From Ginglymostoma cirratum (lineage: Eukaryota), in assembly GCA_024137785.1 (NCBI GenBank), contig JAHRHZ010000098.1, forward strand, positions 38,669,231 to 38,733,230: a stretch of DNA of 64,000 nucleotides, given 5' to 3'. Positions within the stretch are counted from its first letter, which is position 1, and every line of letters starts with the position of its first letter. The position numbers and the translations under genes are program-made. Below are positions 3,590 to 58,019 of this stretch, one piece after another. The notes beneath the pieces are model-generated. The model searched no databases, was not told the origin of the DNA, and worked only from the letters and a program-made list of their open reading frames with translations.

Positions 3590-3778
3590 AAAGGACTGCA
3601 GATGCTGGAAGCTGGAGTAAAAAACCTTGGCACTGGAAAAGCGCAGCAGGTCAGACAGCATCCAAGGAACAGGAAAGTCAACCTGTCAGGTTGGAACTCT
3701 TCTTCAGGACTTCTTTTCCAGAAGAAGGCTTCCCACCCGAAATGTTGACTTTCCTGCTTCTCAGATGCTGTCTGACCT
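3590..3778. mobile_element. Palindromic PLE-terminus mini-element
   Basis: ggtcagacagcatc...caggaaagtcaac inverted against gttgactttcctg...gatgctgtctgacc; two degenerate hammerhead-like cores back to back. Confidence 0.7.
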
Positions 3779-3914
3779 AAAACAAAAGCTCATTACTTCA
3801 CACCTACAAGGCACAAACTTTACCTGTCACTCATTAGATTAAATTATCTAGTTTCTTATGTAGGCTGACATGAACTCCTTACTATCAGGAATTAAAGATG
3901 AAGAATTATTAACA

Positions 3915-4720
3915 AACATTCCCATTCCTGACTATTACAGGAGGAAAGTTATTGAAGAAGCAGCTTAAGGTGACTGGGCCTAGAGTACTACTTAATTAAA
4001 CACACACAGATATGCCCCAAGGTTACAATACGTTCTTTTGCCCTGACTACTAGAGGCCAGACATTCTGACCAAAGTTAGATCAAGGTTGTTAATCAGCAT
4101 GGAGCTGATTAGTTTTGGTGGTACCTGATCTGTGCATCAAAAAGCAGGTTACTTCCTGGTATCTACGTTCAACAGTACTACTGATTACTCTTTCAATCAC
4201 TTCATTGATGATTTGGAGAGGATGACTGATTAGTAACTGAAGATGGATTTATTTTTGTGAATCTCAACAACCTTCCATATAACCTATATTAGTGTCTGGC
4301 TGTACTGAAGCAAGTTGGCCAACTCTGGTGCAAGGGTCTTGAACAGCAAAATGACATTGCTAGACTCCAATTTCATTGTTTGCTGCATTATCTTCCTTCC
4401 TGATATCACATTGACTGGATCAAATTTGTGACACATTGACAATAGGGACCTTAGGTGGTGGTTAAGCAAGATCATCTCCTTGACTCCTTTGGCTGACGGT
4501 GTTTGCAAAACTTCAGTTTTGCTTCTGTACTCAACCATTGTTGAACTTGTATGTATTTTATGACGTATTCACCTGTTACTTGCCTAGTAGTCCACCCCTA
4601 ATTGCCTTTAAGAAGGGGGTACTGAGCTGTATCGGTGTTTAGGGACACTAACATTGTTGTTAAAGATGGGAGTGCTAGGATTCTGAACTGCACACAATAA
4701 AGATAATATGCAGTACCAGG
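3915..4720 (-). mobile_element. Degraded CR1/L2-group LINE ORF2 fragment
   Basis: ORF 4284-4538 contains FKTLAPELANLLQYS, matching the KTCAPELAxPLAKLFQYS motif of this LINE family. Confidence 0.55.
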
Positions 4721-5282
4721 TTCTGGTTTCCAATTTTCTTCCCGTCTATCCTGAAAGCATTCTCTCATTCTATAGAATTGTTGAAAAGTACAACTTTTCT
4801 TTTAGTATCTCACCAATACTGAATATGGAAAATCAGACAGCGAATTTCAGTGGGTACGGCGCTAAACATATCTTCATCTGACATATACATTTAGGAAGAT
4901 TACACCAAAGAGCACTAGATAATGCCCATTCTTCCACTTGGATCAGCTGACTTTTTTTTTCCATACAGGCTCAAATCCAAAACTGCATTTGCTGCAGTAC
5001 TATCGCCCTGGATCAATTAACTCTATATAAACGGAATAATAACATTCAAAATTTCACAAAATGACGTGATTTTTCAGCATTGAGAAGTGTATCCATATCT
5101 GGAGGACTTGCAAGATGAGAGCGAAAAGGGTGCAATGATTTTCACGAGCAGAATAAACTAATTTCATTCAAGATTTCTAATATTTGAATGCATAAACTTT
5201 GAAAAGAGTGACATGGTGAAAATGATGATTTTAGAATTACTTTGCAATTTGACACATTCTCCAATTCTAAACAAAACGTTTA

Positions 5283-5622
5283 ACATTCATGAGGGGTATA
5301 GAAAGTGAATGGCAGGTGTTTTTTCCCTACAGTAGGGGATTTCAAGACTGCAGACTTTTTAAGGTGACAGGATAAGGATTTAAGGAGGATGTGAGAGCCA
5401 ACGTTTTACACAGAGTCTTATGGAATGGACTTCCAGAGGAGATGGTGGATGAGGATGCAGTTACAACGTTTAAGAGACATTTAGATAAGTACATGAACAA
5501 GAAAGGTTTGAAGAGATAAGGGCCAAGCGCAGGCAGGTGGGACTAGTTCAGTTTGGGATTATGGTTGGCATGGACTGGTTGGATCGAAGGGTCTGCTTCC
5601 ATGCTATATGACTGTATGACTA
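5283..5622 (+). mobile_element. CR1 LINE 3' end
   Basis: Typical shark CR1 3' end (gagacatttagataagtacatgaac...gatcgaagggtctgcttccatgctatatgactgtatgact). Confidence 0.85.
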
Positions 5623-7064
5623 CTCAAAATGTTTAACAGGTTTTTAGGTATTCAAGGTACTAATGCGAAAAGCCAACTTAAGATTGGGCCACTACTGTCC
5701 TTAAAATGGTAAGCATACCAGTTTTCATTTTTCTTTTCATTCGCGTCATATTAATGTGGTTATTGTGTAATAATTTATAGGTTTTTAAAATGCAGATTTT
5801 CAAGATGACAATTCTTGCCTTCCTACAAGTAGACTGTTACCTATTGAATAGATTCCATTGATGAAACTCACCAGATTAGCAAGGGACATTTTTTTTCACT
5901 TTTACACTAGAAACCCTGTGTTGTGTGGTATGACATGCATAGGATATCTGAACCTTGAGATGCATATCTAAAACGTCATCAAACAGCTCTTCTGAGATGT
6001 TTTTGTAACAACTCCTTCCTAAGACACTTGCTGCCCACTATCTACATTGTCTGAGTCTCACAGGGGATCAGACTGACACATGTCTAAAAAATCATGAAGT
6101 GTTTACTCCACACAATTCTCTCACTTTACATGCATAAAGAATTTTTTTAGCTGGCTGTCAAAACTGTAAAGTCATCTCCTGCTTTTATCTGCCACATCCA
6201 GTTTGTAGCTGGGATTTTTAATAAATATTTTTAGTGCCAAACACATTTTCTGGAGGTCTTTTACAGATATTTGCTTCGCAATCGACAATGAAAACATTAA
6301 TAACCAACATATTACGTTCACACGGAATCCCATCAAGAACATCCCATATTTGAAAGGAACGGTAGCATTTTAATTTGAAAGCTAAATGAACTGTCCAATT
6401 GGATTTTGTTAGGTTGATACATTTTTATCACTGCTTCTGGTTAAGAAACATACTTCACAGCCAAGTAAGCGAATACTCAAATCTGCAGTCTGGGATTTGC
6501 ATAAATTCACCTTGCTTTAACAAAGCTCTCATTTAACCTGCCATGTTTGACCACTTGAACATTAATTTGCCTGGCACCGCTGATGGTAAAATGGCAAACT
6601 GTGGGCTGTTATTAAATAAATCTGCAATTAGAAGTGAAATAACTGTCAGCTATTCTGTCTGACTGCTTAAACTGTAAGTCACTGATAACGTATGAATAAA
6701 TGTGAATCTAATACTGTTCTGTGTGGTCAAGCTGCACGATGAACAACATTCAACAGCCTGTACCATGCATCATGTGGAACAACGAGTGATTGTGATCCAA
6801 GTGTGCTTCCATGATGAACATTAAGTTACATTTATTCATACATCCTAATTCCAGTCTACTTTACCTTTTTGAAATGTCACCAGAGGTCAGCCTATCTTGA
6901 CAGTTCAAACTAATTCCCGATTCTCAAGTTGTAATGATGTAAGTGAAATCTTGTCTATGGAGAGATGTCCTCAAAAACACCACTAAATTAATTTGTCATT
7001 GAGTAGTTCCAAACAAGATGCCATTTCATGAGAACATATTCAATCATCTTTGGCTATTTCACCA

Positions 7065-7712
7065 CAGAAGGTTAGCGTACAGGTATAGCAAGCAATTAAA
7101 AAGCCAAATAGTATGTTTGCTTATCCTACAGTAAGGAAATCTTGCTGTAAGATACAGTGCTTTCGAGAGACAACAACTGGAATAGTATGTTTTGTTTTGT
7201 TCTTCTTATCCAAGGAAGGATACGCTTACCTTTGAGGAATTGCAACAAAAATTCATTAGATTGATTTCGGGGACAAGAGGGCTATGCTATGAGAAGTGAT
7301 TGAATAGGATGGGCCTATATTCTGTGTTTTACAAGATTGAGAGGTGATCTGATTGAAATAAATAAAATTCTGAAGAAACTTGGCAGAGTAATTACTGAGA
7401 AACTGTTTCCCCTAGCTGGAGACTCTAGAACTATCCAGCCATCATTTTAGACGAGGGAGTTGGCTAATTAGGATAGAGAAATGTCTTCACTCAGAGTATT
7501 GTGAATCTCTAAAAATGTCTGTTCCAAAAAAATATGGATACTCAATTAATCAGAATATTCCAGTACGAAACAGTTGGCATTATATGGCATTAAAGAAATC
7601 AAAGAGTTTGGTTTTAGGGCAGGAAACAGGAGTTGATATGGCAGATCAAGCATGATCTTATGAAAAGGTGGAGTAGGCTCCAGAGTAATAGGGCCTATTC
7701 CTGTTCCCACTC
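7065..7712 (+). mobile_element. CR1 LINE RT C-terminus and 3' UTR, degraded
   Basis: caggtatagcaagcaattaaaaagccaaatagtatg...gagaggtgatctgattgaa (QVQQAIKKANxM / RGDLIE motifs). Confidence 0.8.
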
Positions 7713-8039
7713 TGATTCAGTTTCCTCCTAAATGTGTCACTAGAGATTCAGTTGTTCAGTTTCCTTCCCTACTTCATTTAATTTGTGTTCTCTGGGGTGT
7801 TATCTTTTCCTTATGTATGTTTCCTTCATAGCAATAACCTCCTCCACTCTCCCAACTCTACCCGTGATTTTAGTGATCACATTTAGCAACTTCACATTGA
7901 TTTCTAACTTCCAGCTTTCCTGTGACACAATGGTAGAACCATTACATCCTTATTTACTCCATACTGTAAATGGGTCAAAGTAAAATCACTTCTTTAATTT
8001 CTAAGATACTGTAACCTTACGTCTCTTGCAAATCCAATG

Positions 8040-8662
8040 CTAGGTAGACAAGATAGTGAATGAGGTGTTTGGTATGCTTGCCTTTATTGGTCAGAGCACT
8101 GAGTATTGGAATTAGGAGGTCATGTTGCAGCTGTACAGGACATTGGTTAGGCCACTTTTGGAATACTGCATTCAATTCTGGTCTCCCTGCTATCAGGAAG
8201 GATGTTGTGAAACTTGAAAGGGTTCAGAAAAGATTTACAAGGATGTTGCCAGGGTTGGAGGGCTTGAACTATAGGGAGAGACTGAATAGGCTGGGACCAC
8301 TTTCCCTAGAGCGTCAGAGGATGAGAGGAGACCTTATAGGAGTTCATGAGATCTTGAGGGGCATAGGTAGGGTGAATAGACAAGGCCAAAACTACAGGGC
8401 ACAGGTTCAAAGTGAGAGTGGAAAGATTTAAAAGGGACCTATGGGGGAATGTCGTCATGCAGAGGGTCGTGCATGTAAGGAATGAGCTGTCAGTGGAAAT
8501 GGTGGAGGCTGGCACAATTACAACAATTTAAAAGGCATCTGGATGGTTACATGAATAGGAAGGATTTACAGGGATAGGGCCAAATGCCAGCAAATGAGAC
8601 TGGTGGCTTGGATGAGTCGGACCGAAGGGTCTGTTTCCATGCGGTACTGACTCTATAACTAC
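8040..8662 (+). mobile_element. CR1 LINE 3' fragment
   Basis: ORF 8060-8431 contains RKDVVKLERVQKRFTRMLPGLEGLNYRERLNRLG...MRGDLI, the CR1 RT C-terminus. Confidence 0.92.
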
Positions 8663-9347
8663 GATCCCATACCTTCAACAGTTACACAGAGTTCCTCATT
8701 TTCATGATCACCATCTCCTCGGGTGATCTTCTTTCTACATTTTCAAGATCCAACCTTTTCTTTCATCTGCCTTCAACAACTTTTAATTTTCTAGAAAGTC
8801 TTTCCTATATCTCAGGAAACGTTTTATGGCCTCTGACAATACCAGCAGACACACAGGAGGAACACTCTTACCTGAAAACATGATATTATCCTCATGTATA
8901 GTAACCCAAATCTTACAATTGCAACTCTTATATTTCTCAACACTACTTATCCTGCTACAGTACTCAAATCCTTCTCAAAGCATTCTTCCCTTAATCATCT
9001 AAGCTGCAAAGACGTCATCCTGCTGGCAGATAGTGGGTAAGAAAATCTTGTTCATTTTTGTACAAATCTAATTTTATTAGGCAGCATTCAATTGAAATCT
9101 ATAAAATCTGAAGTTCCCTGGCTCATGCAGGGTTTTATCAAAGTATCCACTGAATGCCATTTGGGCTTGGTTAAAGAAACAGTTTCACCAATTCCTCTCT
9201 AACTGGGTCTGATCAGTCTTGTGTGTTAGGAGCATATAAACCTGATCCTAGTTTGAAATACAACAGAGTGCAAGAGTTATCCTGTTCAAATAGTGTACCA
9301 ATTGATGTAAGTCTACTAAAATATATAAAAAATAAGTAAATACAATA

Positions 9348-9640
9348 TGGTTAGCACTGCTGCCTCACAACACCAGGGACCCGAGTTCGATTCCAGCCTT
9401 GGACAACTGTCTGTGTGGGGTTTGCACATTCTCCCCGTGTCTGCGTGGGTTTCCTCCCACAGTCCAAAGAAGTGCAGGTCAGGTGGAGTGGCCATGCTAA
9501 ATTGCCCATAGTGTTCAGGGATGTGTAGATTAGGTGGGATATAGGGGAATGGGTCTGGGTGGGATGCTCCAAGGGTCAGTGTGGACTTGTTGGGCCGATG
9601 GGCCTTCTTTCCACACTGTAGGGATTCTGTGATGATGATG
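9348..9640 (+). mobile_element. HE1-type V-SINE (tRNA-derived)
   Basis: ggttagcactgctgcctcac, B box gagttcgattcc, V-domain gtttgcacattctccccgtgtctgcgtgggtttcctcc, CR1-like tail. Confidence 0.9.
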
Positions 9641-9689
9641 AATATTGAATGAAATAGTGAAGTAGTTAATTAGGATGCATTAAGGATGA

Positions 9690-12768: not shown

Positions 12769-13090
12769 CATACAGAGGCATCTAGGCGTACAGGTCCACA
12801 GTTCCCTGAAAGTGGCAACCCAAGCGGATCAGGTGATCAAGAAGGCACATGCTATATGTGTCTTCACTACGATGTTCCAAATATGGCCTATTTAAAGTTC
12901 TATTCAGCTGCAATTTTTATATTCTGTGCCCCAGCCAGTGAAGACACATATAGCATGTGCCTCCTTGATCACCTGATCCGCTTGGGTTGCCACTTTCAGG
13001 GAACTGTGGACCTGTACGCCTAGATGCCTCTGTATGTTCGTGCTTTCAAGGTTTCTGCCATTTACTACATACTTCCCTCCTGCATTCAAT
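12769..13090. repeat. CR1 fragment with 100-bp inverted duplication
   Basis: 12769-12868 is the reverse complement of 12937-13036 with one mismatch; both encode QRHLGVQVHSSLKVATQADQVIK (CR1 RT). Confidence 0.9.
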
Positions 13091-13530
13091 CATGTTCTTC
13101 ACAGCCTACAACACATTACTGATGACGAGGAGCAACTCGTCAAGATCTTCCTCGCACCTCCACTTCTCGCCTTCAAACAACCGCCAAACCTTAATCAGAC
13201 TACTGTTCGTAGCAAACTAGCCAGCCTTCAGGACAATATCAACCACAACACTATGCGACCCTGTCATGCCAACCTCTGCAAGAATTGTCATGATCTTCGA
13301 CATGGACGCTACCATCACACATGGGAACACCAGCTAGCATGTGCACAGCAGATACTCACGTGACTCAGTCAGCGTCTATCTCATACACTGCAGGCAAGGA
13401 TGCCCCGAGTATTGTATATTAGCGAAACCACGCATATGCTATGACAACGGATTAATGGACACTGCACAACAATCGCCAACAGGGATGTTCCCTCCCAGTG
13501 GGGGGAACAGTTCAGCAATCAAGGGCATTA

Positions 13531-14255: not shown

Positions 14256-14399
14256 CACCATCACCAATAAGAGACAACCAGCCGCGGATTTTCGGGTAAT
14301 AGTCCTCCAAGGTGGACGTCAGGATACGCAACAACGCAGAGTCGCCGAGGTCTTGATTCAATTTCGCACTACAGGTGACCCCACCACACTATACACTCC

Positions 14400-15519
14400 C
14401 CTTCGCAGGCACACGCACATGCTCCCATACTCCCTAACACATACTCCCAGACACGCGTGCCCACACGCGCAGACACAGACAAACACACACACATGATCTC
14501 TCCCCTGTGCAAACACACACACACACACACACACACAATGTTTCGCATGCAGATGCAGACACAAACACACAGACACGATTTCCCAGGCGCGCAGACGCAA
14601 CCACAGACACACACACATATGATGTCTCGTACGCAGATAGAGACAAAGACACACACAGACACACACGATCTCTCATGCGCTACCACGCGCGCAGACACAG
14701 ACACAGATAAACAGACACGATCTCTGGCATGCGCAGACACGGACACGATCTCTGCTGCGCGCAGACACAGACACAGGGACACAATCTCTGCCATGCACAG
14801 ACAAAAACACACGATTTCTGCCGCACGCAGACAGACGCATAGACACGATCTCTGCTGTGTGCAGACGCAGACGCAGACACAGACACACAAGAACACACAC
14901 AAACACGGTCTCTCACTTGCTCCGACACAGACTCTCACACACGCGATTTCTCACGCACACAGACACACACATATGATTCGCACGCAGACAGACACACACA
15001 CGCGATGTCTCATGCACACGCAGACATACACACAATCTCTGCTGCATGCTGACACAAACACACACACATGATCTCTCACGTGCTCCGACAGAAACAGACA
15101 CACGCACGCACGTGCACATGCACATGCACACCCGCTGCCTCGCGCGCAGGCACACGCACATGCACATGCGCTGCCTCGCGCGCAGGCACACAGGCACACA
15201 CACGCACACACACCCCCCACTGTCTCACGCGCAGACACACACACACACACCCCCCCGCTGCCTCGCGCGCAGACAGACACAGACACAGGCACACAAACAC
15301 ACCCACACACACCTGCTGTCTCACGCGCAGACAGACACAGGCACAGACCCACACACTCCCACAGATCCTCTCATGCTCGCGCACATATACACACACACAT
15401 GCGCACCTCTCACACACGCCCATATAGGCAGACACAAACACAGACACACACAAAGAATCTCTCACACACTCCTCCTCCCCCCACCCCCACACACACACAC
15501 TCGGACAGATTCACACACA
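14400..15519. repeat. Complex CA-rich minisatellite
   Basis: Recurring cacgatctct...gcgcagacacagacacac and cgctgcctcgcgcgcag units in (CA)n; source of the many overlapping low-complexity ORFs. Confidence 0.95.
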
Positions 15520-15698
15520 TTTTTACTTCACAAACAAGGAGTCACAGAACCTCGATGAGCCTAGGTTTCACTCACAATTAAGGACAGACAGTCATACAGC
15601 ACGGAAACAGACCCTTCAGTCCTACTCATCCATGCCGACCAGGTTTTCCCATTTGCATGTTTTTGGCCCATATCCCTCATGTACCTGTCCGAACGTCT
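15520..15698 (+). repeat. Local direct duplication of 17237-17431
   Basis: Near-identical: 3 substitutions and a 16-nt deletion in this copy. Confidence 0.92.
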
Positions 15699-16710: not shown

Positions 16711-16711
16711 C

Positions 16712-17030: not shown

Positions 17031-17305
17031 ATCTCCCTCATAGCATTAAAAGCAATTGTTGACTCAACTCAATATTTGCCATGACCTCAAAACTGTGCAA
17101 CTCCATACTTTTCCAAAACATTATTTCCCTTAACAATTGGGAAGATCGTAATACCGACGCTTAACCATACTTCACAATAGCAGCTTTCTGCCTCCTTTTT
17201 ATTAATTTCAAACACAGTGGTAAGCTTCATTCTAGCTTTTTACTTCACAAACAAGGAGTCATAGAACCTCGAAGAGCCTAGGTTTCACTCACAATTAAGG
17301 ACAGA

Positions 17306-17585
17306 CAGTCATACAGCACGGAAACAGACCCTTCAGTCCTACTCATCCATGCCGACCAGGTTTTCCCATTTGCATGTTTTTAGCCCATATCCCTCTAAAC
17401 CTTTCCCATTCATGTACCTGTCCGAACGTCTTTCATAATTTGTGACTGTCCTACATCTATCACTTCTGCTGATAGTTCATTACACATACGAGCCACCCTC
17501 TGTGTGAAAAAGTTGCCCCTCGGGACTCTTTTAAATCTTTCTCTGCACATCTTAAAATTATGCCCTCTAGTTTTGAACCCCCAGC
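17306..17585 (-). mobile_element. CR1 LINE 3' end
   Basis: ORF 17410-17595 has KTRGHNFKMCRERFKRVPRGNFFTQRVARMCNEL. Confidence 0.88.
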
Positions 17586-17619: not shown

Positions 17620-18335
17620 TATTAGTTCATGGGATGTGGATGTTGTGGATCAGGCCAGAGTTGTTGCACATTCACCACGAGGTGGTGGTGAGTTGCCTTC
17701 TTGAATTGCTGCAGTCCTTGAAGTGTAGGTACACCCACAGCACTGTTAGTGAAGGAACAGCAATACAGTTCTAGGTCAGGATGTTAAGTGGCTTGGAGGG
17801 AAGTGTTCAGATGATGGTGTTCCTACATATCATGTTTCTTTGTCCTTCTGGGGGTCAAAGGTCATAGATTTTGAAGTTGCTTTTACAAAGGAGCCCTGGT
17901 GAGTTACCACGGTGGTTCTTGTATGCAGCAGACACAGCTGATACTGTGTTTGTAGTGGAGAGCATAAATGTTGCAGGTGGTGGATAGGGTGAAAATCAAA
18001 CAGGCTGGTTTGTGGGAGCGAAGTACTGCAGATGCTGGAATCTGTACTGGAAACAAATGCTAAATATCACAGCGGGTCAGACAGCATCCATGGAGAGAGA
18101 GCAAGCTAACGTTGAGTCTAGATGATTCTTCATGGGGTTTGGTTTGTCCAGGATAGCATCAGACTTCTTCAGTGGTATTGGAACTGCAGGGAAGTAATCC
18201 AACACACTCCTTATATATGCCTTGTAGATGGAGCACAGACTCCAGGGAAGCAGGTGGTGACTTACTTGCCACAGGACTCCTAACCTCTAACTTGCCGCTA
18301 TAGCCACAACATTTGGTTATATACAACTGGTTGTA
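17620..18335 (-). mobile_element. CR1/L2-group LINE 3' fragment, interrupted at ~18014-18139 by a PLE terminus
   Basis: Same family as 13531-14255; PLE terminus (ctgcagatgctggaatctg...agctaacgttgagtc) flanked by tggtttgt repeats at 18006-18013 and 18140-18147. Confidence 0.75.
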
Positions 18336-18389
18336 TACTGCTGAGACTCCGTCTGCGCCAAAACCAAATCCAAACAAGATTAGAATGTC

Positions 18390-18467
18390 TGAAGAAGGGT
18401 CTTGACCCGAAACGTCAGCTTTCCTGCTTGGCCTGCTGTGTTCATCCAGCTCTACATCTTGTTATCT
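18390..18467 (+). mobile_element. Minimal PLE-terminus insertion with intact hammerhead core and 14-bp TSD
   Basis: aagattagaatgtc at 18376-18389 and 18468-18481; CTGAAGA-a-GGGTC-tt-GACCC-GAAA-CGTC at 18389-18416. Confidence 0.85.
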
Positions 18468-27610: not shown

Positions 27611-28254
27611 ACTTGTTCTTTTGTTATCTAAATAACATGGAATTTTTTAATATAGTTACCTCAAAGAATATCTAAAATAGAAATAGATCCTTTGTCAATT
27701 TTTGAATATGCATTTATAATTGAAAGCAGCAATTTAATCATGAAAATTCAAACCAAAATTATGTTAAAGTTTTCCCTGCTCTCCTAGTATGGAATTAACT
27801 GAAGAATAACCCATTTATTAAATATGGTTTCACTTTAACCACTCTGACCTATATTCTATTCTCATTGGCTTGAGCATTCCTGTTGTGCAATCTACGCAGC
27901 AAGATCACAACAGCAATATTTTGATGTTGCATTTTGAGAGATGCTAGGGTCCTCGTTCTCAATGCGTATACTTCATGTAGACAATGGCAATCAAAAAGGA
28001 AACATTTTGGATTTGTTGAGATCAGTCACATACAGAGTTCCATATTGCATTGTATACTATATCACACTTGGCTCCAAAACATGTAGAGGATAATGGTTCA
28101 ACCTTTTAAAACAAAAAGCAGTTATTGTCTGTTTCTAGGCCTTCTTCAACTGCCAATGTAGAACAAACTTTTTAGCCAGTAGCACATGCGGGGGCCTTAA
28201 AGAGATAAGCTGTGTGAAACATAGATCCACCTTAACAACTAAACGTTACAATTA

Positions 28255-28965
28255 TCCTTCAGTAAATGACTATGAACAGTACCACATGATATCCAACTAT
28301 AAAGGAGGACACAGCATGCCCTAACACACTGGCCACACTACCCTACATTGAGAACATACTGGAAATGACAACAAGACTTCTAAGGGCACTAGGAATCATG
28401 GTGGCCCACAGGCCCACAGCCACTCTACGATAAACACTTACAAGGATTAAAGATCCCATTCCCACAAATGCTGAATCAACGTGGTTTACAAAATACCATG
28501 CAACGATTGCGTTGGACAGACAGGAAGGAAACTAGCCATCAGAATACATGAACATCAACTAGCAGCAAAATGGTATGACAAACTCACCTTAATATTGGTA
28601 CACACACACAATGAAGGGCATCAGTTTAACTGGGACAAAGTAACCATTGTAGCCCAAGCCTAACGCAGACACACATGGGAATTCCTAGAGGCATAGTTCT
28701 CCACCCGTAATGCAATCAACAAACATATCAAATTGGACCCCATATACAAATCCATACAGATCAACACCGGAAATGACACTACTCACCATAACAGACCAGA
28801 CAGAATAAACTCCAAGCAGAGTAGAATAACATTGCTTCATTGGAAGCTCCACTGATGATGTCACCTAGCATGGTGATGAAATGTCTGAACGAGAACAAGC
28901 CAGCTCAGTGAGCAAGTCAAAACCTCACCCACAACCCGAGCTACAGATCTTTGCCAAAACTTTAA
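28255..28965 (+). mobile_element. Penelope-like element (second family): GIY-YIG end and hammerhead-containing terminus
   Basis: NVVYKIPCNDCVGQTGRKLAIRIHEHQLAAK...GHQFNWDKVTIVAQA; CTGATGA-tgtcacc-tagcat-ggtgat-GAAA-tgtc at 28852-28885. Confidence 0.88.
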
Positions 28966-31954: not shown

Positions 31955-32470
31955 AGCCGTTTGGAAACACCAGAAAATGCTGATCAGGCATTAGGTTAGT
32001 TAACATTTCAGGCGAAGACCCTTACTCAGAAAAGGGGATTGGTGGAGATGTGGTGAAGACATATGGGTGGAAACCCACCAATTAGTGTCAAAGTGAACAG
32101 GTTTGAAAATGAGCATATATATAAGTTCAAACAAAGTTCAAAGCTATTCAAATCAAAGACTTGTGGAGTGCTTTGGAGAAAGTATTAAATATTGTCCTTG
32201 AGTTTGCATCGAGCTTCACTGGATAAGTGAACAAGGCTGCGGCCTAGCTCCACGTGAAACAAGGAAGAGTTCAAGGAGCAGCCTGCAGAACTCAGTTTCA
32301 TCACATTAAAAATAGATGTGTCAGCAATATAATCACCTAATATACATTTGGGTTCTCTAATTTAGAGAATGTTACACCATTAGCACTCAAAACAGTAAAT
32401 AAAAAAAGCAAATATATGAAAATTGCCATCATTAAGGTGCGTGCTTACAACTTTGAATAGTGCTGAGAGG
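31955..32470 (-). mobile_element. Old PLE remnant
   Basis: Terminus ttaacatttcaggcgaagacccttactcaga and ttgagtttgcatcgagcttcactgga, resembling the PLE 3' end at 40926-41400. Confidence 0.45.
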
Positions 32471-33226: not shown

Positions 33227-33315
33227 TTGTTACAGAGACAGTAGGAACTGCCGATGCTGGAGAATCTGATATAACAAGGTGTAGAGATGGCCTACTGTGT
33301 TCCTCCAGCTCTACA
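33227..33315. mobile_element. Collapsed PLE-terminus mini-element with TSD
   Basis: ggaactgccgatgctggagaatctgatataacaaggtgtagag...ctctacacctt; ccttaatacga (33216-33226) and ccttaatatga (33316-33326). Confidence 0.7.
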
Positions 33316-35178: not shown

Positions 35179-36387
35179 ACGTCTTGCAGAGTACATCCTA
35201 TTTATAATTCTAGGAAAAATAAATCACTGTGTCACACTGAGAATTTTTGCATGAATGCAACTAAATTTAGCCACCAGTAATTAGACTGTAACCAGGATAT
35301 CACGATTGAGGTCCCATAGCTTCTGCTATTCTAAGTACAAGTGAATACAAATTGTCATAAACTAATCTTTCCACTACAGCAGTTAAAATAGAACTTGGTT
35401 TCTGAGCTTCATCTGGCTTTTTTAAAAAACCCATCAAACTTTAAGACTTCGCTCGAATAAGCATATCGATAGTACTGTTGTTTATTTTTTCCTACTGTTT
35501 TACTGAAGGCAAAGGGACGTTGTTTTGAGCTTGTATAAGTTTTTACTTCATTTGTTTTATCTCATTTATAACTGTACATAATAGTTCCTCCTTGAAAGAT
35601 TAACCTATAATGAACAGTACTTGGTATTTAAATAGAAACATTTTTCAGCATTTTTACTGACACTAAGCTTTTTGTGCTATGAACAGGATAGGCGATAGGC
35701 TTTGCAAATAACAAACTCTGCTTATCTGTATATCAATCCTGTAGATGGATAGTACTACTGATCTGAAAGAGTTGTTATCAGAGTTTAGTCAGAAAAAACA
35801 GAATTTATCATTATTCAACTTTGATGAGATAACTCAGGAAGACAGCACAAATGCAGACTACTAGATTATAAAACCTTGACGCCCAGTGAGCATCCCTCCC
35901 CCCATTCCTAATTTCCATCAAACTGACTACATAGACTCTGACATTTTATACAAACGCTAACGTTTATACCATATGGGAAATTAACTAATAAATTGCTAAA
36001 GAATGAGGTAGGCCTTAATTCATCCCTATAGTCTTCTCATTTCAATATGCAATTGTTTCCTCTCATTTTTTTCTAACTGTTGAAAGTTCATCCCATGTGT
36101 TGATCACTGAAAAAATTTTGACAAATTGGCTTTTGCTGCCTACTTGTCTTGCATTTGCATTTTAATCTAAAATACAATTTCTTTTAGCTATCTTATAATA
36201 TTAATTGACTGATATTACACAAAAATTATGAAAAAGGCAGTAAGAAAGTGGGCTGGAAAACCACATCAAAAGATACTGGAAACATGCATCTGCAAATAAA
36301 CTAACCGTCTCAGTCCTAACCTAAATTGCTGGTCATTGGGAAGGCATAAAATATCATCCACCAAAAAAACCGATAAAATGGTGTTAT

Positions 36388-36916
36388 AAAATAAAACTTG
36401 GAATTTTTGGAAACACTTAACTTTTGCGAAGAGAATAAGATAGGAGTAAATATTTAACAAGAAGATCTTTCATCAGGACTCGAGCATCCTTTTTGCACAA
36501 ATGCTGTGTCCTGATTTAAAATATTAACTTGACTTTCCTCAGAGTTACCACCTATGTTTTTTTCAGTAGGTTGCATAGAATTGGTTAAACACGGTCATAT
36601 GTTCTGGAAGTATCAAATTCCTAACTGATGATAAAAATTACATGATATTGTACTTCAAATGTAATTTTTAATCACCAGTTAGGAATTTGATACCTCCAGA
36701 ACATATTCCCATGTTTAATCAATTCTACGGCAACCTACTGAAAAAAACATAAGTGGAAATTCTGAGGAAAATCAAGTTAATATTTTAAGTCAGGACACAG
36801 CATTTGTGCAAAAAGGATGCTCGAGTCCCGATGAAAGATCTTCTTGTTAAATATTCACTCCTTTCTTATTCTCTTCACAAACGTTAAGTGCTTCCAAAAA
36901 TACCAATTTTTATTTC
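36388..36916. repeat. Long inverted repeat (fold-back), ~255-bp arms, 15-nt loop
   Basis: 36388-36643 is the reverse complement of 36659-36916, about 90% identical by manual alignment; loop gatattgtacttcaa. Confidence 0.95.
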
Positions 36917-37689
36917 AAATTTCCATCTGCAGTATTTTGCTTTTCGTTTTACGTAGGCTAAGATTCAGTTTTCCTGATTTGAAGACCTCACTCCTTGTAG
37001 GAATATGCCACTTGCATTACCAGTTGAAAGAGAACTGACGCAAGCTATCAAAGCTACGATTCAGCGATCCCCACAGCATTCACAAACTGCATTAAAACTA
37101 ACAGAGCATGAATTGATAAGCTTTTATTGCTTGTTATGTTGGGGGCACCTATAAACTAGATTTGCAGAAAAAACAGAAGTGGGAAGAATCTTAACCAACA
37201 GAGGCAGGTGGATTCCTTTAGTGCTCCTGCAATAAGAGTCAGCTCTGCTGATCAATCATTAACATTGTCCTAGAGCCATCTGGTTCAAACAGTAAACCAT
37301 GGAGTTTGGCACAGATGTTTTCACTTGGTTGTGAACTTCAATAATCAGGCAGGTGGTCTTGAGAGTCACTTCAAATTCTTCTGTCCCGATTGAGGGTAAT
37401 CATGAAATGCACAGCAGACAACTGACAAGCATGTTTATGCTCTCACTAGACTTCCAGCAGATGTCATTCACAACTTCTTTTTAAAGAGTAAATCAATTGT
37501 CAGTTTAGAAGTAAACTAAGTATCATGGTATAATACACAATGGTCTTATACACTGAAATTTCAAAAGTGATTCAAATGTGAGATGACTGCTATTTGGAAA
37601 AAATTACTGATTTAGTAGTTACAGCTGATACTCAGTCTTAGAGAGGCCCTTACAGCTCAGTTGTGGCTGAGTACAAAAATTTCCTGCAA

Positions 37690-40114: not shown

Positions 40115-40925
40115 TTTGTTCTTTACTGGAGAGAAAGTATATTCAAATGTCACGTGAAGCTATGTTTGAAAATTAAGCATCTCAGTTCAGAGAATCCAGA
40201 ACAATAATAAGCAGACTTCATTCCCTCATACTAACATCAAAAAAAAAGAAATGCACGAGTAAAATGTAAGCATCAAAATTCTCTTGTATATTACCTTATA
40301 GTCTCCCCATAGCAAAGCAGCCCAATTTGTCCACATTTGACAAGTGTCTATCAGGCAGAAATTAGGGTGGATATAACCTTTTGGGGCTCAATGTTTCAAG
40401 GGCTGTTTTGCGAAATTCCAGTTCTTATAATTCTCTCTCCCGAAGATGATTCATAGGACTTGGATCCATGGACACCAACAGTTCTCCAGTGTCCCATTAA
40501 AGTGACTATTTTTCCCATGTTTCCTTAAACTGGCTAGTTAATAGTTTGAGAGTTCATACCTGGTTTCACTCATCAGCCATAGACATAATTTTCATGTGAA
40601 TGTGCAATGGTCTACAGGCCAGCAATAAAGGTACAGGAACCTTGAAAGTTGTGCCCTTTTTTTGAAAACCTGTGGGCACTGAAACTGGTTGCACCAACCA
40701 GTCATCAGCGTGTAAAATAATTAGAGAGAGACTGGAGGACCCTTGACTTCTGAAACAGCGTGTTTCAGACAGAGTGTGCGGTCAGCAACTTCATAAAAGA
40801 GTGTCAGAGGAAGCAAGAACATCAGCTTACAAACAGCATGAGACACAGCCAAGTCTGCAAACTCTCAAACAGCACGAGAAAGCATGAAGATAGCAGCTCC
40901 ATAAACAGTCAATACAGCGTGCACC

Positions 40926-42700
40926 TAGAGGAACACAGCAGGTTAGGCAGCATTACAGGAGCAAGAAAATTGACGTTTGGGTTTATATCCTTCATCAGGG
41001 TTGAGGAGGGTGAAGGCAGCTCAGAAATAAATGGAGTGAAGGGGTGGGACTTGGGGAAGGTAGGCGGGATAGTAATAGGTGGATGCAGGTAGGGTATTAT
41101 GGAGATAGGTCATGGGAAGGGTGGGGCAGATAGGTGAGAAAGATGATGGACAGGTTGTGTCAGGTCAAGGAGGTGGGGATAAAAGGGGGGGGGTTGGACA
41201 TGGGATGAGGCTGGAGGTAGGGAGATTTTGAAACTGGTGAATCCCATGTTGAGGCCATCGGGCTGTAGGCTCCTGAGGCGGAATATGAGGTGTTGCTCCT
41301 CCAGTTTACGTGTGGCGTCATTGTGACACTGGAGGCGGCCCAGGATGGACATGTCGCCCAGGGAGTGGGAGGGGGAGTCAAAATGGTTGGCAACTGGAAA
41401 TGCTGTTGATTATAGCGTACAGAGTACAGATGTTCTGTGAATCAGTCACCAAGTCTACACTCGGTCTCACAGATGTAGAGGAGGCCACACTGGGAGCAAC
41501 AGATACAGCAGACCAAGTTGGAGGACGTACAGGTGAATCTCTGTTGGATTTGGAAAGATTGTTTGGGGCTTGGATGGAGGTGAGAAGGGAGGTGTCATGG
41601 CAAGTTTAGTACTTCTTGTGGTTGCAGGGAAAGGTGCCGGGTGTGACGGAGAGTGTGGAGTGGCCGAGGGAGTTGCATAATGAGCAGTCCATATGAAAGG
41701 AAGTTTGGGGTGGGTCGGATTGCAGACGGTGAAAGTGGCGGAGGATTATATGCTGGATGTGGAGGTTGGTGGGGTGGTATGTGATGAGCAGGGGGACTCT
41801 GTACTTACTTTTGTTGTGGGCAGGGGGTTTGAGGGTAGAAGTGTGGGAAATGCAAGAGATGCAATAGAGGGCATTACGAATAACTGGAAGGGAGAAGTTG
41901 TGATCCTTGATGTAGGAGGACATCAGTGATGTCTGGGAGTGGACGCTTCATCTTGGGAGCAGAAGTGGTGGAGGTGGAGGAATTGGGTGTATGGGATCAC
42001 ATTCCTGCAAGACGGTGGGTGAGAAGTGGCATAGTCAAGGTAGCTATGGGAGTCAGTGGGTTTGAAATACATATTGGTGCTGAGACAATTACCGGAGATG
42101 GAGACGGAGAGGTTAAGGAAGGGAGGTGTTGGAGATGGTCCAGATGAATTTGAGGTTGGGGTGAAAGGTGTTAGTAAAGTTGATGAATTGTTTGAGCTCC
42201 TCTTGGGAGCACGAGGCAGTGCGAGGAAGAGGCGAGGGCTGGTACCAGTGTAACTGCAGAAGAAGGACTGTTCCATGTATCCTACAAAGAGGCAGGCACA
42301 GCGTGGGTCCATGGGGGTGCCCACAGCCACCTCTTCAGTTGGTCGGGAGTGGGATAAAGGCATCAGCGGGAGCAGCTGAGGCGACCGCATAGTTAATGGC
42401 ACGAGGCGAATTAAGGAGGTGGTTGTGGAAAGGGTTGGGGTCTAGGGTAGTGGAGGTGGTCTGTGTTTGGAGGTAAGCACGAGCAAGTTGGATGTACTTA
42501 TGATCCATGATGTCCAATAGGGCGGAGAAAAAGCATTTGTTGAGGGTGTGGATCCTGCGTAGAATGAAAAACAGTAGCGAGATCCTTTGTGGTCTGGGAA
42601 AAGGCGTCGGTGGGAGTGGCCAAGGCAACCACGTGATTAATGGCGCCAGGCGAAACATGTCAGCGGGAGCGGCCAAAGCGACCATGTGTTAATGACACCC
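40926..42700 (-). mobile_element. Penelope-like element (N-terminal region, RT, GIY-YIG, terminus), deleted and degraded
   Basis: VAVGTPMDPRCACLFVGYMEQSFF (RT), LSTNMYFKPTDSHSYLDYATSHP, RVPLLITYHPTNLHIQHIILRHFHRLQSDP, ATRKLEEQHLIFRLRSLQPDGLN; ~55-bp internal repeats at 42335-42700. Confidence 0.92.
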
Positions 42701-43022: not shown

Positions 43023-43174
43023 AGTGTAATACAACAGGAAAGCAGGTAGGTGATTGGTTGGTATTTCTTCTGTATCTCTTAGTTGGCCAAGTTGAAAAGT
43101 ACACTTAAGAAATTCATTCTCGAAGTATTTAATATCCAAATTAATAATAGAAAGATGACTAGGAAGGACTGGGA

Positions 43175-43414
43175 AAAAAATCAAAGTTGTTGGAGAAGCT
43201 CAGCAGGTCTGGCAACATCTGTGAAGGAAAAAACGGAGTTAATGTTTCGGGTCTGGCGACCCTTCTTCAGAACCCCTTCTGGAGAAAGGGTCACCGAACC
43301 CGAAACGTTAACTCTATTTTTTCCTTCACAGATGCTGCCAGACCTGCTGAGCTTCTCCAGCAACTTTGTTTTTGTTCCTGATTTACAGCATCCACAGTTC
43401 TTTCGGTTTTTATT
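43175..43414. mobile_element. Palindromic PLE-terminus mini-element with 15-bp TSD
   Basis: Arms 43182-43272 and 43277-43368 are inverted copies; taggaaggactggga at 43160-43174 and 43415-43429. Confidence 0.9.
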
Positions 43415-43474
43415 TAGGAAGGACTGGGAGATGTCTTGCTCCTACAGAGTGTGGAAGCTAGGGAAGAGCTGAAA

Positions 43475-49869: not shown

Positions 49870-49995
49870 AGCCTACTCAGGTGAACTTAAAAGATGATAT
49901 GTTATTATTCGAAGAGTAGGGGGGTCTTGTGTCCTAGAATATCACCAAAAGAAGACTATCTTGTCATTCAATTCACTTGATGTCTGTGGGACTTT
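49870..49995 (+). mobile_element. Degraded Deu-domain SINE remnant (SacSINE1/AmnSINE-like)
   Basis: ctcaggtgaacttaaaagatg...tattcgaagagtagggg...gtgtcctag...tatcttgtcatt...gtctgtggga resembles the recalled Deu core. Confidence 0.45.
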
Positions 49996-52829: not shown

Positions 52830-53900
52830 TTAAGGTTCACGAGGTTGATTCCTGGCACGAAAGAATTGCCTCATGAGGAAGGATTGAGCAGCTTGGGCCT
52901 ATATTCATTGAAAGGAAGGAGATTTTATTGGGAAATTGGAAGGGTTGATACTGAGTGGATGTTTTTATTTACCCAACTAGTTCATTAATGTCCTTTAATC
53001 TAGGAAATCTGCTGTCCTTACCTGGTCTGGCTTACATGTGACTCCAGATCCACTGGGCAGTTAGGGATGGATCATAAATGCTGGTCTAGCCAGCAATGTT
53101 CACAGTCCACAAACAACTAAAACAAAGTCATGGGAGAAATCTAGAACTAGAAGACAGAGATTCAGAATAAGTGGTTTCTCATTTCACATGGAGACGAGGA
53201 AGAATTTCTTGTCTCAGACAGGTGTAAATCTTTGGAATTTCTGTCCCAGACTTTTTGGAGGGTCATTATACAAGTTCCAGGCTGAGTTAGTTCAAGAAAC
53301 TGTCTACTGGGGAGCAAAGCCAGCATTTATTGCCAATCCTAAGTTCCCTGGAGATGATGATAGAGAGAGATAGAGAGATGATAGATCAACTGCTGTAGTG
53401 CATGTGGTAGTCTGCAGTGCTGACAGTGAGGGAGTCCCAGGATTCTGACCCAGTAACTGCGCAGAAATGATAATGTATTTCCAAGTCACGATGATGTATG
53501 ATAATGGAAGGGAATTTACAGGTGGTGGTGATTCTATACATCTGCTGCCCTTGATCAATTAGGTGGTCGAAGCAGTGGGTTTGAAAGGTGCTGCAGACAA
53601 AGCCTCCACAAGTTGCTGCAGTGCATCTCGTAGATGGTATGCACGACTGCCATTATGCACCAGTGGTAGAGAGTGAATGTTTAAGGTGGCGGATCAAGTG
53701 TTTTGGCTCTGACGGCAATGCATCCTTGAGGATTGTTTGAGCTGCTTGAGGATTACTGAAGCTGCAGTCATCTCAGTTACGGGGACAAGCAGGAAAGCAA
53801 AGTTGAGGCCAAGTTCAGCTATAATTCTACTGAATGACAGAGCAGGTGTGAAGCATTGTATAGTATACCCCTGCCCTAGCTTCTCATGCTTTCATGTTCT
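52830..53900. mobile_element. Nested cluster: CR1 3' part (+) with tRNA-SINE (52972-53125, +) and CR1/L2-group LINE tail (53305-53710, -)
   Basis: aggttcacgaggttgattcctgg (RFTRLIPG); SINE body ttcattaatgtcctttaatctaggaaatctgc; CR1 resumes with tctagaactagaagacagagattcag. Confidence 0.75.
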
Positions 53901-54083
53901 TGGCAGAATTTCAAAGTGGCCTACTTGCTTGACCAACTTTTCAAGTTGCAAGTAAATGGAAGGAAAAAAGATGTACAATGGAAAATATCCTGTCAATAAA
54001 CTGCCAGAATCATTCCAAGTCACTCAAAATGGTCCACAGGATAACAGCTGGAATTTAATAATTTATTGATGACTCAATTTCAC

Positions 54084-54376
54084 AGCACAGTGGTTAGCAC
54101 TGCTGCCTCACAGTGCCAGGGATCTGGGTGTCTGTCTGGGTGGGTTTCCACTGGGTGCTCCAGTTTATCCCGCAGTCCATGAATGTGCAGATTAGGTGTA
54201 TTGGTCATGCTAAATTGTCCACAATATCCAGGATAAGTCCAGTGTCCATGGTAAATATGGGATCATAGGGATAGGGTGGGTTGCTGGGTCCGGGCAGGAT
54301 GCTCTGCAGAGGGTCAGTGCAGGATTCAAATGGGCTGAATGGCTTCTTTCTGCACTGTAGGGATTCAATGATTCTA
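54084..54376 (+). mobile_element. HE1-type V-SINE, internally deleted
   Basis: cacagtggttagcactgctgcctcacagtgccaggga...gtgggtttccactgggtgctccagttt...catgctaaattgtcc. Confidence 0.88.
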
Positions 54377-55316
54377 TGAAAGGAAACTATTTTAGGCTCA
54401 GCACTGTTTTAATAGCATGTCAAATAGTATTTTATACTTATTTTATTTCATCAATTGAAACTCTAAACTGCAATTTTAAAAAGGATTTGGTATATCAAAG
54501 GAAAGAAACAAAGATCTCTTCTCAGTACTCCTATTGTAAGTCCACAGCATTTTTCACTTTACGATAACATGACCTTCTGGGCTGAACGTGCCAAATCCTA
54601 GCCTCTCGAGCACTTGAATTTATCATCCACCTGTGGCTTGTTTGATAACTTCTTGTTTGCATGTTTGGAGTGGAGTTCCTTGTAATAACTAAGCCACAAA
54701 TTTCTGACAACTCTTTTAAATGCAGGTGCTTAGTTACTGCTGCAAATGCACTGACTGTGATGCTGCATCAGCAACATCTACAACCACAATAACCACAAGT
54801 TAGTTCTGTTTCACACCAAAATTATTGTAAAGTGATCTTGTTAGATTTGACATATTACTGTAACAATGCTATTTGCACTTAAAAGACATGGTTCAGTACC
54901 CTCAAGAAAAGATAAGTGAAGTAACTAATTCACTAGCAATAATGCAAAAAATAGTCAACGCTATAACTTATGTATGTCAATGGGGTACATCAAGGGATTT
55001 GTCTGTATATTGCACACTCAGCAGTGTGTACAGCAAAGGAATTTCTACATCACATTAAGCTAAATTTAAAAGGCATGTCTGCAATCAAAGATAATTTCCT
55101 ACTATTTCAATTTGAAATTGTATGAAGTATTAATCTATCGAGATTTCGAGCCCACTGATCCAGAGTTTCCAATTCTAGTTGAATGCACTTCTGGAAGCTT
55201 CATCACACAGTCATCAATATTCAATTCATACTCCCTAGTACTGTCATTGGCCACCCAATAATTCCCAACCATCTTCTTGTAGGAAATGAGACGGAAAGAG
55301 ACTAATTTCCTAAGTG

Positions 55317-55484
55317 AAAATCGAAAGAACTGCGGATGCTGTAAATCAGGAACAAAAACAAAGTTGTTGGAAAAGCTCAGCAGGTCTGGCAGCATCTGTG
55401 AATTAAAAAATCAGAGTTAACATTTCAGGTCTGGTGATCCTTCCTCACAAAACATGTTCTTTTCCAACAACTTTGTTTTTGTTC
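55317..55484. mobile_element. PLE-terminus mini-element with partial inversion and 15-bp TSD
   Basis: Same family as 43175-43414; ctaatttcctaagtg (55302-55316) and ctaatttccttagtg (55485-55499). Confidence 0.88.
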
Positions 55485-56564
55485 CTAATTTCCTTAGTGG
55501 ATGGGCCTTTTTGTCAGACAAACAGCCAATATTTTTATGGCTAATAAAAAATGCTAAAATATCTCGAAACAATACTTTTGTTAACGTCCTTATGATTTTT
55601 AATTGTGGTTTCTTCACCTGCAATAATTTTTCCTTCTGCTCACACATCACTAGTACTCCTCAAAAAATCTCTCTTTATCTCCTTTCGACATCATAACTGA
55701 AAACACATCATCAGTTTCTACATGCGCGACACTATATCATACTGAATGGAATAGATTTCAATCAGATCTAGTAACTCAAGACCAGGCATCCATGAGGCGC
55801 TGCAGGCCATTAGCAGCAGGAATATTCCGTTACAATCTGAAATCTCATGGCCCAGCATGTTCTTTATCTTCATTACCAACCTAAAAGTGCAGGAGGGTAT
55901 GCAATTATAAATGAGGTATCATCCTGGTGAAGCTACATCAAAGGAATACTTGCATGCCAAGCAACAGAAGCAGCAAATGACCAACATAGCTAAGTGATCC
56001 CACAAACAATGGACGAAACCTCTGCAATCCTGCCACATTCCATTATGAATAGCAGAGTTAAATAAAACCACTGAGATGGCTGCACAAATGTACCTATCCT
56101 CAATGATGGGGGAGCCCAGTACATTAGCACAGAAGGTTAAGGCTGTAACATTTGAAATAAGCTTCAGGTTGCCATTCGGCACATCTGGCTATGTCCTTCT
56201 GAGATTTGCATAATAATAATCTGCTCACTCGCGCTCAGTTTGGATTCTACCATGCCCACGTAGCTCCTAGCCTCATTACAGCATCAATCCCAGCATTTCC
56301 AAAATAGCTGAACTCAAGCAGAGATGTGAGGGTGACCACTCTTAATATCAAAGCAAGATGTGACCAAGTATGGCATCAAGGAGCCCTAGCAAAGCTGGTC
56401 AATAGGCATGAGGAAAATGCCCCTCCGCTGGTTGCAGTCACATCAAGTAGAAAAGATGGTTGTTGGAATTCAATCATCTGAGCCATATCCTCAGGGTAGT
56501 TATTTTCTATATCAACTTGTTCAGAAATTTTATTGCAGACCTCTGGAGCAGGTGGGGCTCGTTT

Positions 56565-56913
56565 TTAAAATTCATTCACAGCATGTGGGTGTCGCTGACT
56601 AGACCAACATTTATTGCCTGTCCCTGATTGCCCAGGGGACAGTTAAGAGTCAGCCACATTGCTGTGGGTCTGGAGTCACATGTAGGCCAGATTAGGTAAG
56701 GATGGCAGTTTCCTTCCCTGAAGGAAATGAGTGAACCAGATGGTTTTTTCCAATAATCGACAATGGTTTCACGGTTATCAGACTCATAATTTCCAGATTT
56801 TTAAAAAAATTGAATACAAAATCCACCATCTGCCATAGCAGGATTCAAACCCAAGCCTCAGCTTCACTGTATTAACAGTTTAGTGATAATACCGTGAGGC
56901 CACTGCCTCCCCT
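56565..56913 (-). mobile_element. tRNA-derived shark SINE, full length
   Basis: Same family as 39814-40114; inserted within a short tRNA-headed element (56512-56960). Confidence 0.88.
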
Positions 56914-57216
56914 TAAACCGAGTTCAGAGATGGGACACTACCACCGTGCCACAAGAGTCTCCAAACATCCTCAGGGCAACATCCTAGGCCCAACAACTTC
57001 CAACTGTTTCATCAATGACTCTCCCTCCATCATAAGGTCAGAAGTGAGTATGTTCACTGTTGATTGAGCAGTGTTCAGCACCATTCACTTCTCCTCAGAC
57101 ACTGGAGCAGTCTGTGTCCAAATAGAGCAACACCTTGCCAAGGACCATTTGTGCCTCACCAGTGCCAGGTAATAACCATTTCAAACAACAGAGAATCCAA
57201 ACATTACCCTTTGATT

Positions 57217-57400
57217 CAGAGATAATAGGTACTGCAGATGCTGGAGAATCCAAAATAACAAGGTGTGGAGCTGGATGAACACAGCAGGCCAACCAGCATC
57301 ATAGGAGCAGGAAAGCTTGATAACAAGGTGTGGGGCTTTCCTGCTCCTATGATGCTGCCTGGCCTGCTGTGTTCATCCAGCTCCACACCTTGTTATCTCG
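57217..57400. mobile_element. Palindromic PLE-terminus mini-element with 15-bp TSD
   Basis: ataacaaggtgtggagctggatgaacacagcaggcc...ggaaagc inverted against gctttcc...ggcctgctgtgttcatccagctccacaccttgttat; cattaccctttgatt at 57202-57216 and 57401-57415. Confidence 0.9.
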
Positions 57401-58019
57401 CATTACCCTTTGATTTCAATGGCAAAATTATTGCTGAACTGTCCATTATCGACATTGTGGGTTGGTATTGACCAGAAACTGAACTGCATCAGCCATATAA
57501 GTATTGAGGCTTCAAGAGCATGTCAGAGGCTGGGAATGCTGTATCTACTGGCTCCTCAAAGCTGCAAGTCAGGACTGTGATAAAGTAATATTCATTTGCA
57601 TAGACGAGTGTAGTCTTAACAACACCAAGAGGCTTATCACCATCCAAGAAACAGCAGCCTGCTTCATTGGCACTCTATACATGACCTGCAACATTCACTC
57701 TCTTCACCACCGACACACATTGGTAGCAGTACTTTCTGAAAGATGCACTGCAGCAAATCACTAAGGGTCCTTGGACAGCACATTTCAGTTCTATGAATAC
57801 TACCACCTAGAATAACAAGGGCAACAGATACATTGGACCACTGCCACTGCAAGTTCACATCTAAGTGAGACACCATCCTGATTTGAACTATTATGATCTT
57901 TCCTAAATCTGGTGAAGGCCTCCTAAACAACACTGTTGGTATATCTAAACAAGGTGGACTCCAGAAATTCCAGAGCATGGCACACCACCATTTTAAGGGC
58001 CATTACGGATGGACTGCTG

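Follow-up and report, generated by a model that had tools for sequence, protein, structure and literature searches.

Introduction

Endonuclease-bearing Penelope-like elements (EN+ PLEs) insert as units in which a 5′-truncated copy lies next to an inverted, 5′-truncated pseudo-long terminal repeat (pLTR), with a hammerhead ribozyme in the pLTR (PMC8557442; PMC3846280 for Pen2a_Av) and a tail of 30-40 bp at one end only (PMC8557442, PMC3846280). Here we describe seven short insertions, or stubs, in a 64,000-nt stretch of Ginglymostoma cirratum DNA (contig JAHRHZ010000098.1; hereafter the window, to which positions refer unless a sequencing run from relatives is named). Each is made only of the terminus of a Neptune-type PLE. 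The stubs resemble the published units in their inverted partners and one-sided tails. Their target-site duplications (TSDs) reach 14-15 bp, against 8-10 bp in rotifer Pen2a_Av (PMC3846280). Unlike the published units, both arms are here usually the terminus alone, and their 5′ ends are piled up just before the hammerhead. Inverted truncated partners, tails on one side and TSDs are all published and are usual for PLEs. The sharp 5′ boundary was not found described in the PLE literature that we searched, where the supplementary genomic-end map of PMC11167929 may bear on its novelty; the accessible part of the review PMC6765202 contains nothing on stubs.

The closest biochemical model is PAc, the Poseidon element of Anolis carolinensis. 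As in the window, two internal reverse transcriptase (RT) start sites bound its tail, with the hammerhead upstream of them, and the PAc protein nicks and extends both target strands in vitro (PMC11167929). The elements described here differ from PAc in having a Cys-rich linker between RT and EN, as in the Neptune clade. In its accessible part, the PAc study maps the 3′ ends rather than the 5′ ends of inserted copies and reports no RNA-seq ends at the hammerhead cut (PMC11167929).

The ribozymes are of the minimal type I form described from metazoan PLEs, CUGANGA / helix II / GAAA-C-GU-H with no helix III loop (PMC4209133). In Schistosoma, dual motifs on opposite strands 100-700 bp apart, together with many single motifs, have been ascribed to truncated PLEs (PMC4209133). 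The pairs in the window differ in that they abut, with ~8-10 nt between cores, and in that six of the seven stub cores are decayed. Metazoan non-LTR retrozymes are likewise non-coding and pLTR-related with a type I hammerhead, and are present in a chondrichthyan genome (PMC7229834, bioRxiv 10.64898/2026.07.22.740005). They are built from head-to-tail tandem units, each with a hammerhead, and give circular RNAs (PMC7229834), whereas the window copies are solo or inverted.

Terminus-only insertions and their parent element

The terminus was found at ten loci, the same ten by BLAST and by profile scan: seven stubs, a 35-bp fragment and two long copies. They fall into four subfamilies, A to D, and are as follows.

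1..513, forward strand: 3′ end of a long PLE copy, subfamily A, with EN C-terminus, C/T-rich 3′ untranslated region (UTR), decayed hammerhead and untailed end at 513
3582..3778, no single strand: head-to-head pair of subfamily C with a tailed left arm and a shortened right arm; no TSD found
18014..18139, reverse strand: subfamily D single tailed arm from ~C3 of the hammerhead; 8-bp flank repeat 18006/18140, weak
18389..18467, forward strand: subfamily A single untailed arm from C3; 14-bp TSD 18376/18468
31998..32033, reverse strand: 35-bp hammerhead-only fragment, subfamily B-like (E 4e-4), its upstream limit ambiguous
33227..33315, no single strand: very short subfamily A pair without hammerhead; left arm tailed, right arm untailed; weak flank repeat
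40919..42354 (at least), reverse strand: older broken long PLE copy with RT, thumb, Cys-rich linker, GIY-YIG EN, 3′ UTR and A-like terminus
43175..43414, no single strand: head-to-head pair of subfamily B in which only the right arm has a tail; 15-bp TSD 43160/43415
55317..55484, no single strand: pair of subfamily B, its left arm tailed and reaching ~C3, its right arm untailed and 28 nt long; TSD 55302/55485
57217..57400, no single strand: subfamily A three-piece insertion; 15-bp TSD 57202/57401

An initial annotation, made from the letters alone, had reported the seven stubs as PLE termini, mostly head-to-head pairs without an open reading frame (ORF). All seven are present at or near the places it gave, with one shift: the copy it placed at 3590 starts ~8 nt further left, near 3582. 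We keep 3590 and 18390 as names for the copies listed at 3582 and 18389. The two long copies (1-513 on the forward strand; 40919 to at least 42354 on the reverse) and the fragment at 31998-32033 had gone unmentioned.

The same terminus stands on two copies with RT/GIY-YIG coding sequence in the window, and so the PLE origin claimed earlier holds. Residues 421-462 of P0001, a whale shark protein that matches RVT_1 (E 9e-5) and GIY-YIG (E 9e-5), align to window positions 2-127 at 93% identity (tblastn), and the copy at 40919-42354 on the reverse strand aligns to residues 54-462 in four collinear tblastn pieces (E 2e-106). A Pfam search with the window's own broken PLE frames gave no RT or GIY-YIG match. 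Of 14 relatives found, the ten named to species all come from sharks and rays. The terminus thus belongs to a PLE of RT-linker-GIY-YIG organisation. Further traits of EN+ PLEs are present: a terminus with a minimal type I hammerhead follows the EN in both 1-513 and 40919, the tail is one-sided, five of the seven stubs have an inverted 5′-truncated partner, and six (four of them firmly) have flanking repeats. Inspection by eye of P0001 and of the window frames shows a Cys-rich, Zn-finger-like motif between RT and EN. This linker has been used to define the Neptune clade (PMC8557442, PMC3846280), and its presence indicates that the parent is probably a member of that clade, with the qualification that Nematis has the motif too.

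Direct repeats flank six of the seven stubs, as had been claimed. Four are exact (43160/43415, 15/15; 57202/57401, 15/15; 18376/18468, 14/14; 18006/18140, 8/8) and two have one mismatch (55302/55485, 14/15; 33216/33316, 10/11, of which 8 exact); no flanking direct repeat was found at the 3590 copy. Among 600 random pseudo-elements, a score of at least 14 occurred in 0, at least 13 in 1, at least 9 in 1.5% and at least 8 in 3.3%. On these scores four TSDs are firm, and those of the 18014 and 33227 copies are weak.

Head-to-head pairs make up 5/7 stubs (3590, 33227, 43175, 55317, 57217), of which 43175 and 57217 are near-palindromes, and the other two (18014, 18390) are single arms. The architecture recurs across subfamilies as the initial annotation had proposed, although the count is four rather than its "at least two": A (18390, 33227, 57217 and the long copies), B (43175, 55317), C (3590) and D (18014). 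Arm identity is mostly 54-75% between subfamilies and 74-94% within them. The copies differ in detail. At 18389..18467 the C3 base is common to arm and TSD, and the arm has a 14-nt internal deletion; the two arms at 33227..33315 meet in a TGG microhomology; and the two C3 positions at 43175..43414 are 8 nt apart. The 57217..57400 insertion opens with a tailed antisense arm that reaches the predicted cut, restarts in antisense for 16 nt from the untailed end, and closes with a sense arm covering cut site +1 through the untailed end.

No coding ORF was seen in the stubs in the program-made ORF list, in line with the initial annotation; the sole listed ORF of at least 120 aa over an insertion (43083-43472) is a stop-to-stop frame across a palindrome. 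Hammerhead remnants are present in seven arms of five elements, again as first described, with one core intact: by alignment, the unchanged CUGAAGA...GAAACGUC core occurs in 18390 only. A type I descriptor matched two of the seven remnant arms (18389, forward; 43270, reverse). Paired hammerheads lie on opposite strands. An Rfam search of the window returned no hammerhead family at E≤1, and its 9 other weak matches were mostly microRNA-type hairpins.

Two 3′ ends and one 5′ boundary

Arm positions are given on the 1..513 copy, where C3 is 422, the predicted cut 449/450 and the untailed end 513. In element sense, arms end at two 3′ sites, the untailed site at 513 and a tailed site ~37 nt further. 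All four complete pairs combine one tailed with one untailed arm, and in the fifth (3590) the right arm is cut short. The GATGCTG/CAGCATC blocks at the start sites are invariant in 5/5 tailed arms.

The 5′ ends of the arms are as regular, and define one further feature.

418..422, forward strand: common 5′ boundary of short copies, 0-4 nt before C3; A418 lies in a match to the initiator (Inr)-like motif BBCABW

Every one of the seven hammerhead-bearing stub arms starts within ~10 nt of C3 and is bounded there by TSD, flank or partner arm; both arms of the 3582..3778 pair, for example, begin no more than 10 nt before C3. Counting all arms that clearly reach C3, 7/9 stop within ~10 nt, and the other two continue for at least 421 and ~1365 nt. 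No copy of clearly intermediate length occurs among the ten window loci. Under a constant-rate truncation model, simple and fitted after the fact, this has P 9e-9, or 6e-8 if the 31998 fragment is counted as a miss. Of the arms without a full hammerhead, two (both in 57217) begin at the predicted cut 449/450 and four are still shorter.

The initial annotation had held that the 33.2-kb and 57.2-kb copies lost their hammerheads. Both are without one, but the 57217 copy may never have had one, as both its arms begin at the predicted cut site. Microhomology could account for these starts, the right arm sharing AGCT with its partner.

A splice acceptor was considered as the cause of the boundary and rejected for subfamily A, where the nearest AG after the pyrimidine tract is at 398-399, ~20 nt off, and no loose end is listed at 400. 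The rejection covers A, the upstream sequence of B and D being absent from the window. A splice-acceptor-like site may nevertheless lie near the hammerhead, as in D. virilis Penelope. The word AA(T)CCCC(TT) occurs just upstream of C3 in B and D arms (18133-18139, 32032-32042, 43271-43278) and, in A, at 400-408, after the AG at 398-399.

As a separate observation, the host DNA at four of six untailed ends (513, 18468, 55485, 57401) has ATT within its first 7 nt and is tail-start-like (binomial P ~0.003, for a pattern noticed before testing), which fits the ATT cutting preference of PAc.

The boundary in relatives

Contigs of four public runs from relatives were aligned to positions 150-640 at 80% likeness; three are DNA runs (X10, X4, X13) and one, X1, is guessed to be RNA. 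The run search listed no RNA holder, and none of its runs shared half the words. Loose ends immediately before 419 were found in 324 (X10), 392 (X4) and 1287 (X13) contigs, with 503 more at 418 in X13. They have a median of 202-255 nt, agree with one another at 0.33-0.36 and are A-rich. The low agreement and A-richness point to unique flanks and therefore not to a second UTR; alignment artefacts among the same loose ends are short and agree at 0.6-0.95. Among the loose ends listed for the three DNA runs, the only long 5′ ones are those at 418/419. Moreover, summed depth rises ~3-4x across 421/422 in all three DNA runs, a weak sign that is not a copy number.

At the other side, 3′ loose ends peak at 513, with 929, 1041 and 3936 contigs in X10, X4 and X13. 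The 513 junction is shared with one of the relatives, organism B, since contigs of organism B span 487-640. Head-to-tail joints from 513 to 417/419/421/422 were found in at least 4 (X10), 17 (X4) and 50 (X13) contigs; such tandem dimers are a minority of loci in relatives. The commonest inversion joint listed, opposite-strand 419-454, was found in 8, 15 and 13 contigs respectively, and this count is probably too low, since palindromes break contigs. Starts at ~450-454 are probably lumped together at position 454, as the reference copy has C at 453 where about half of reads have T. A class of copies starting at the cut site is not established: there is the AGCT microhomology at 57217, and pooling alone could rank 454 top. 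A metagenome scan for the motif gave 8 matches, none extending beyond it by more than a few bases, which were dropped as chance, and a viral-contig scan gave 0.

Two alternatives had been left open at the outset: that the stubs are a distinct, non-autonomous, retrozyme-like element or that they are stereotyped extreme truncations of PLE integration. The second is favoured by the 7/7 hammerhead arms that stop near C3 and by the same boundary in relatives. It had also been proposed that unique junctions tracking PLE subfamilies would mark truncation products, and within the window that is what we found, with 7 different junctions in 7 copies spread over four subfamilies.

How the stubs may arise

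On balance, we think it probable that the stubs are terminus-only copies of a Neptune-type PLE whose RT initiates cDNA close to the 5′ end of the element's own RNA and then runs off that end, after ~95-135 bases. By analogy with lizard PAc, the PLE protein would nick both target strands and begin reverse transcription from two internal positions on the RNA. The TSD would follow from nicks spaced ~8-15 nt; priming once on each strand would produce a head-to-head pair in which one arm has the tail, and priming on one strand only would leave a solo arm. Parentage, the two 3′ ends and the 5′ boundary are observed; what we infer is the RNA 5′ end, what kind of end it is and in what order the steps occur. 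That RNA end would lie ~4 nt before C3 and would most likely be the transcription start. In an RNA starting just before the hammerhead, both the priming sites and the binding region downstream of them would sit at the 5′ end. PAc requires RNA beyond its start sites, and because such RNA is absent from the inserted terminus, the competent priming site would be the 5′ copy. If priming recurred after run-off, head-to-tail dimers joining 513 to 419 would result. Most stubs would be inactive from the moment of insertion rather than members of a self-propagating family. Two published results support this scheme: PAc gives shorter products from 5′-shortened RNA and requires the first 172 nt of the ORF (PMC11167929), and the D. 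virilis Penelope transcript starts inside the upstream pLTR (PMC2377424).

Several points weigh against it. In D. virilis the hammerhead follows an intron and lies ~120 nt past the point where the transcript begins (PMC2377424, PMC4209133), and a start at the hammerhead is therefore not general. The Inr-like BBCABW match is low in information and is one of 5 in 301 nt. A stem joining terminus and tail had 0/12 predicted pairs that covary, and folding z-scores of -1.3 to 0.0, which are not significant. Outside the window, the evidence covers subfamily A, in relatives with a word share of 0.13-0.28, and the loose-end and joint figures come from the rows listed, which exclude a further 1668 loose-end rows and 194 joints. 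The X1 run, guessed to be RNA and from organism A, has no 419 among its six loose ends listed and has 513 in 252 contigs, unlike the three DNA runs. No sign of a cap-derived G was seen, the loose-end consensus beside 419 ending in T. Lastly, all four runs are contigs, which are incapable of showing an RNA 5′ end.

A bolder extension is possible, and we offer it tentatively. The stubs would be integrated 'strong-stop' cDNAs and the genome a fossil primer-extension map; RNA would start on the first base of helix I; the minor cut-site class (57217 and the position-454 joints) would record cleavage in vivo; and re-primed dimers would seed vertebrate retrozymes.

The same boundary could instead mark a preferred site of stopping or joining along a longer RNA, whether because RT primed at the 3′ terminus stalls as it exits a (possibly protein-bound) hammerhead, because the cDNA end anneals to an AT-rich nick by way of the ATTT immediately preceding C3, or because 5′-3′ decay halts at the hammerhead. 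We regard this as rather unlikely. It draws on the missing cap-G sign already mentioned, on the ATT at 418-420 in subfamily A together with the preference of PAc for cutting 5′-ATT-3′, on the C/T-rich tract that starts right upstream of the boundary, and on microhomology at several junctions. Yet a longer AT-rich run at 389-396 has no listed pile-up or depth step, and arms of B, C and D end at the same place with no ATT directly before C3. RT stalls usually occur on the entry side of a structure, which counts against a stall in particular.

An independent SINE-like (short interspersed element) or retrozyme-like element, in which a unit of ~95-135 nt with promoter, hammerhead and priming hairpin is transcribed from the stubs and copied by the PLE protein in trans, seems improbable to us. 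Stubs do outnumber long copies in the window (7-8 vs 2), certain loci in relatives hold head-to-tail unit dimers, the non-LTR retrozymes of vertebrates derive from pLTRs (bioRxiv 10.64898/2026.07.22.740005), and one opposite-strand joint recurs in relatives. That joint, however, is the top inversion joint listed and reaches 8, 15 and 13 contigs against 324, 392 and 1287 for the 5′ boundary. A distinct element, the other proposal of the initial annotation, is further opposed by a different junction in every window copy and by four subfamilies, one of them tied to coding copies in the window. The paired hammerheads face opposite ways, none of the seven copies has two or more head-to-tail hammerhead units (a retrozyme trait), and nowhere in the window is the unit arrayed in tandem. 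Moreover, a lone minimal hammerhead failed to cleave in vitro (PMC4209133), and PAc requires RNA past the inserted end (PMC11167929).

Finally, it is just as improbable that the pairs come from fold-back self-priming and the solo arms from recombination between the two short direct repeats that a full-length copy carries. In favour, rotifer head-to-head palindromes have been read as self-priming and some solo pLTRs as products of recombination or deletion (PMC3846280), and 43175 and 57217 are nearly palindromic. Against it, fold-back alone leaves unexplained why 4/4 pairs combine a tailed with an untailed arm, why copies that have no partner (1-513, 18390) show the untailed end, and why 57217 has a restart; the solo arms would still need full-length copies with the same boundary, from repeats of only ~95 nt.

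Neighbouring features

The window holds further repeats apart from the family described above.

28240-28965, forward strand: 3′ end of a second, unrelated PLE family, apparently Poseidon-type; its C-terminus is GIY-YIG-like by eye, with no Pfam match
28852: near-intact minimal hammerhead with a 6-bp helix II, after the GIY-YIG-like C-terminus of this second family
12769-13036: 100-nt arms, 99% complementary, around a 68-nt spacer, followed at 13050-13530 by a broken PLE linker/endonuclease-like fragment
15520-15678 and 17237-17395: 159-nt direct repeat whose copies are 98% identical and start 1717 nt from each other, beside a CA-rich minisatellite (14369-15558)
36378-36926: long AT-rich palindrome resembling a miniature inverted-repeat transposable element (MITE), with 197-nt arms (91%) and inner 62-nt arms; it gives spurious microRNA matches
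60395-61045: a unit present three times at intervals of 177-282 nt, probably SINE-derived and with a tRNA B-box-like motif; weak transfer-messenger RNA (tmRNA) match

Conclusions

In summary, the stubs are real, Penelope-derived and stereotyped, they are not a new element, and their sharp 5′ boundary is the part most worth pursuing. It bears on how PLEs integrate, where their RNA starts and what the hammerhead does in vivo. A boundary present in hundreds to more than 1000 copies per genome provides an exact coordinate at which the RNA start can be tested. TSD-flanked palindromes of this kind should be annotated as PLE stubs rather than as MITEs or a new element. The boundary would explain why most animal PLE hammerheads are solo or inverted and ORF-less, and would offer a route from PLE termini to retrozymes.

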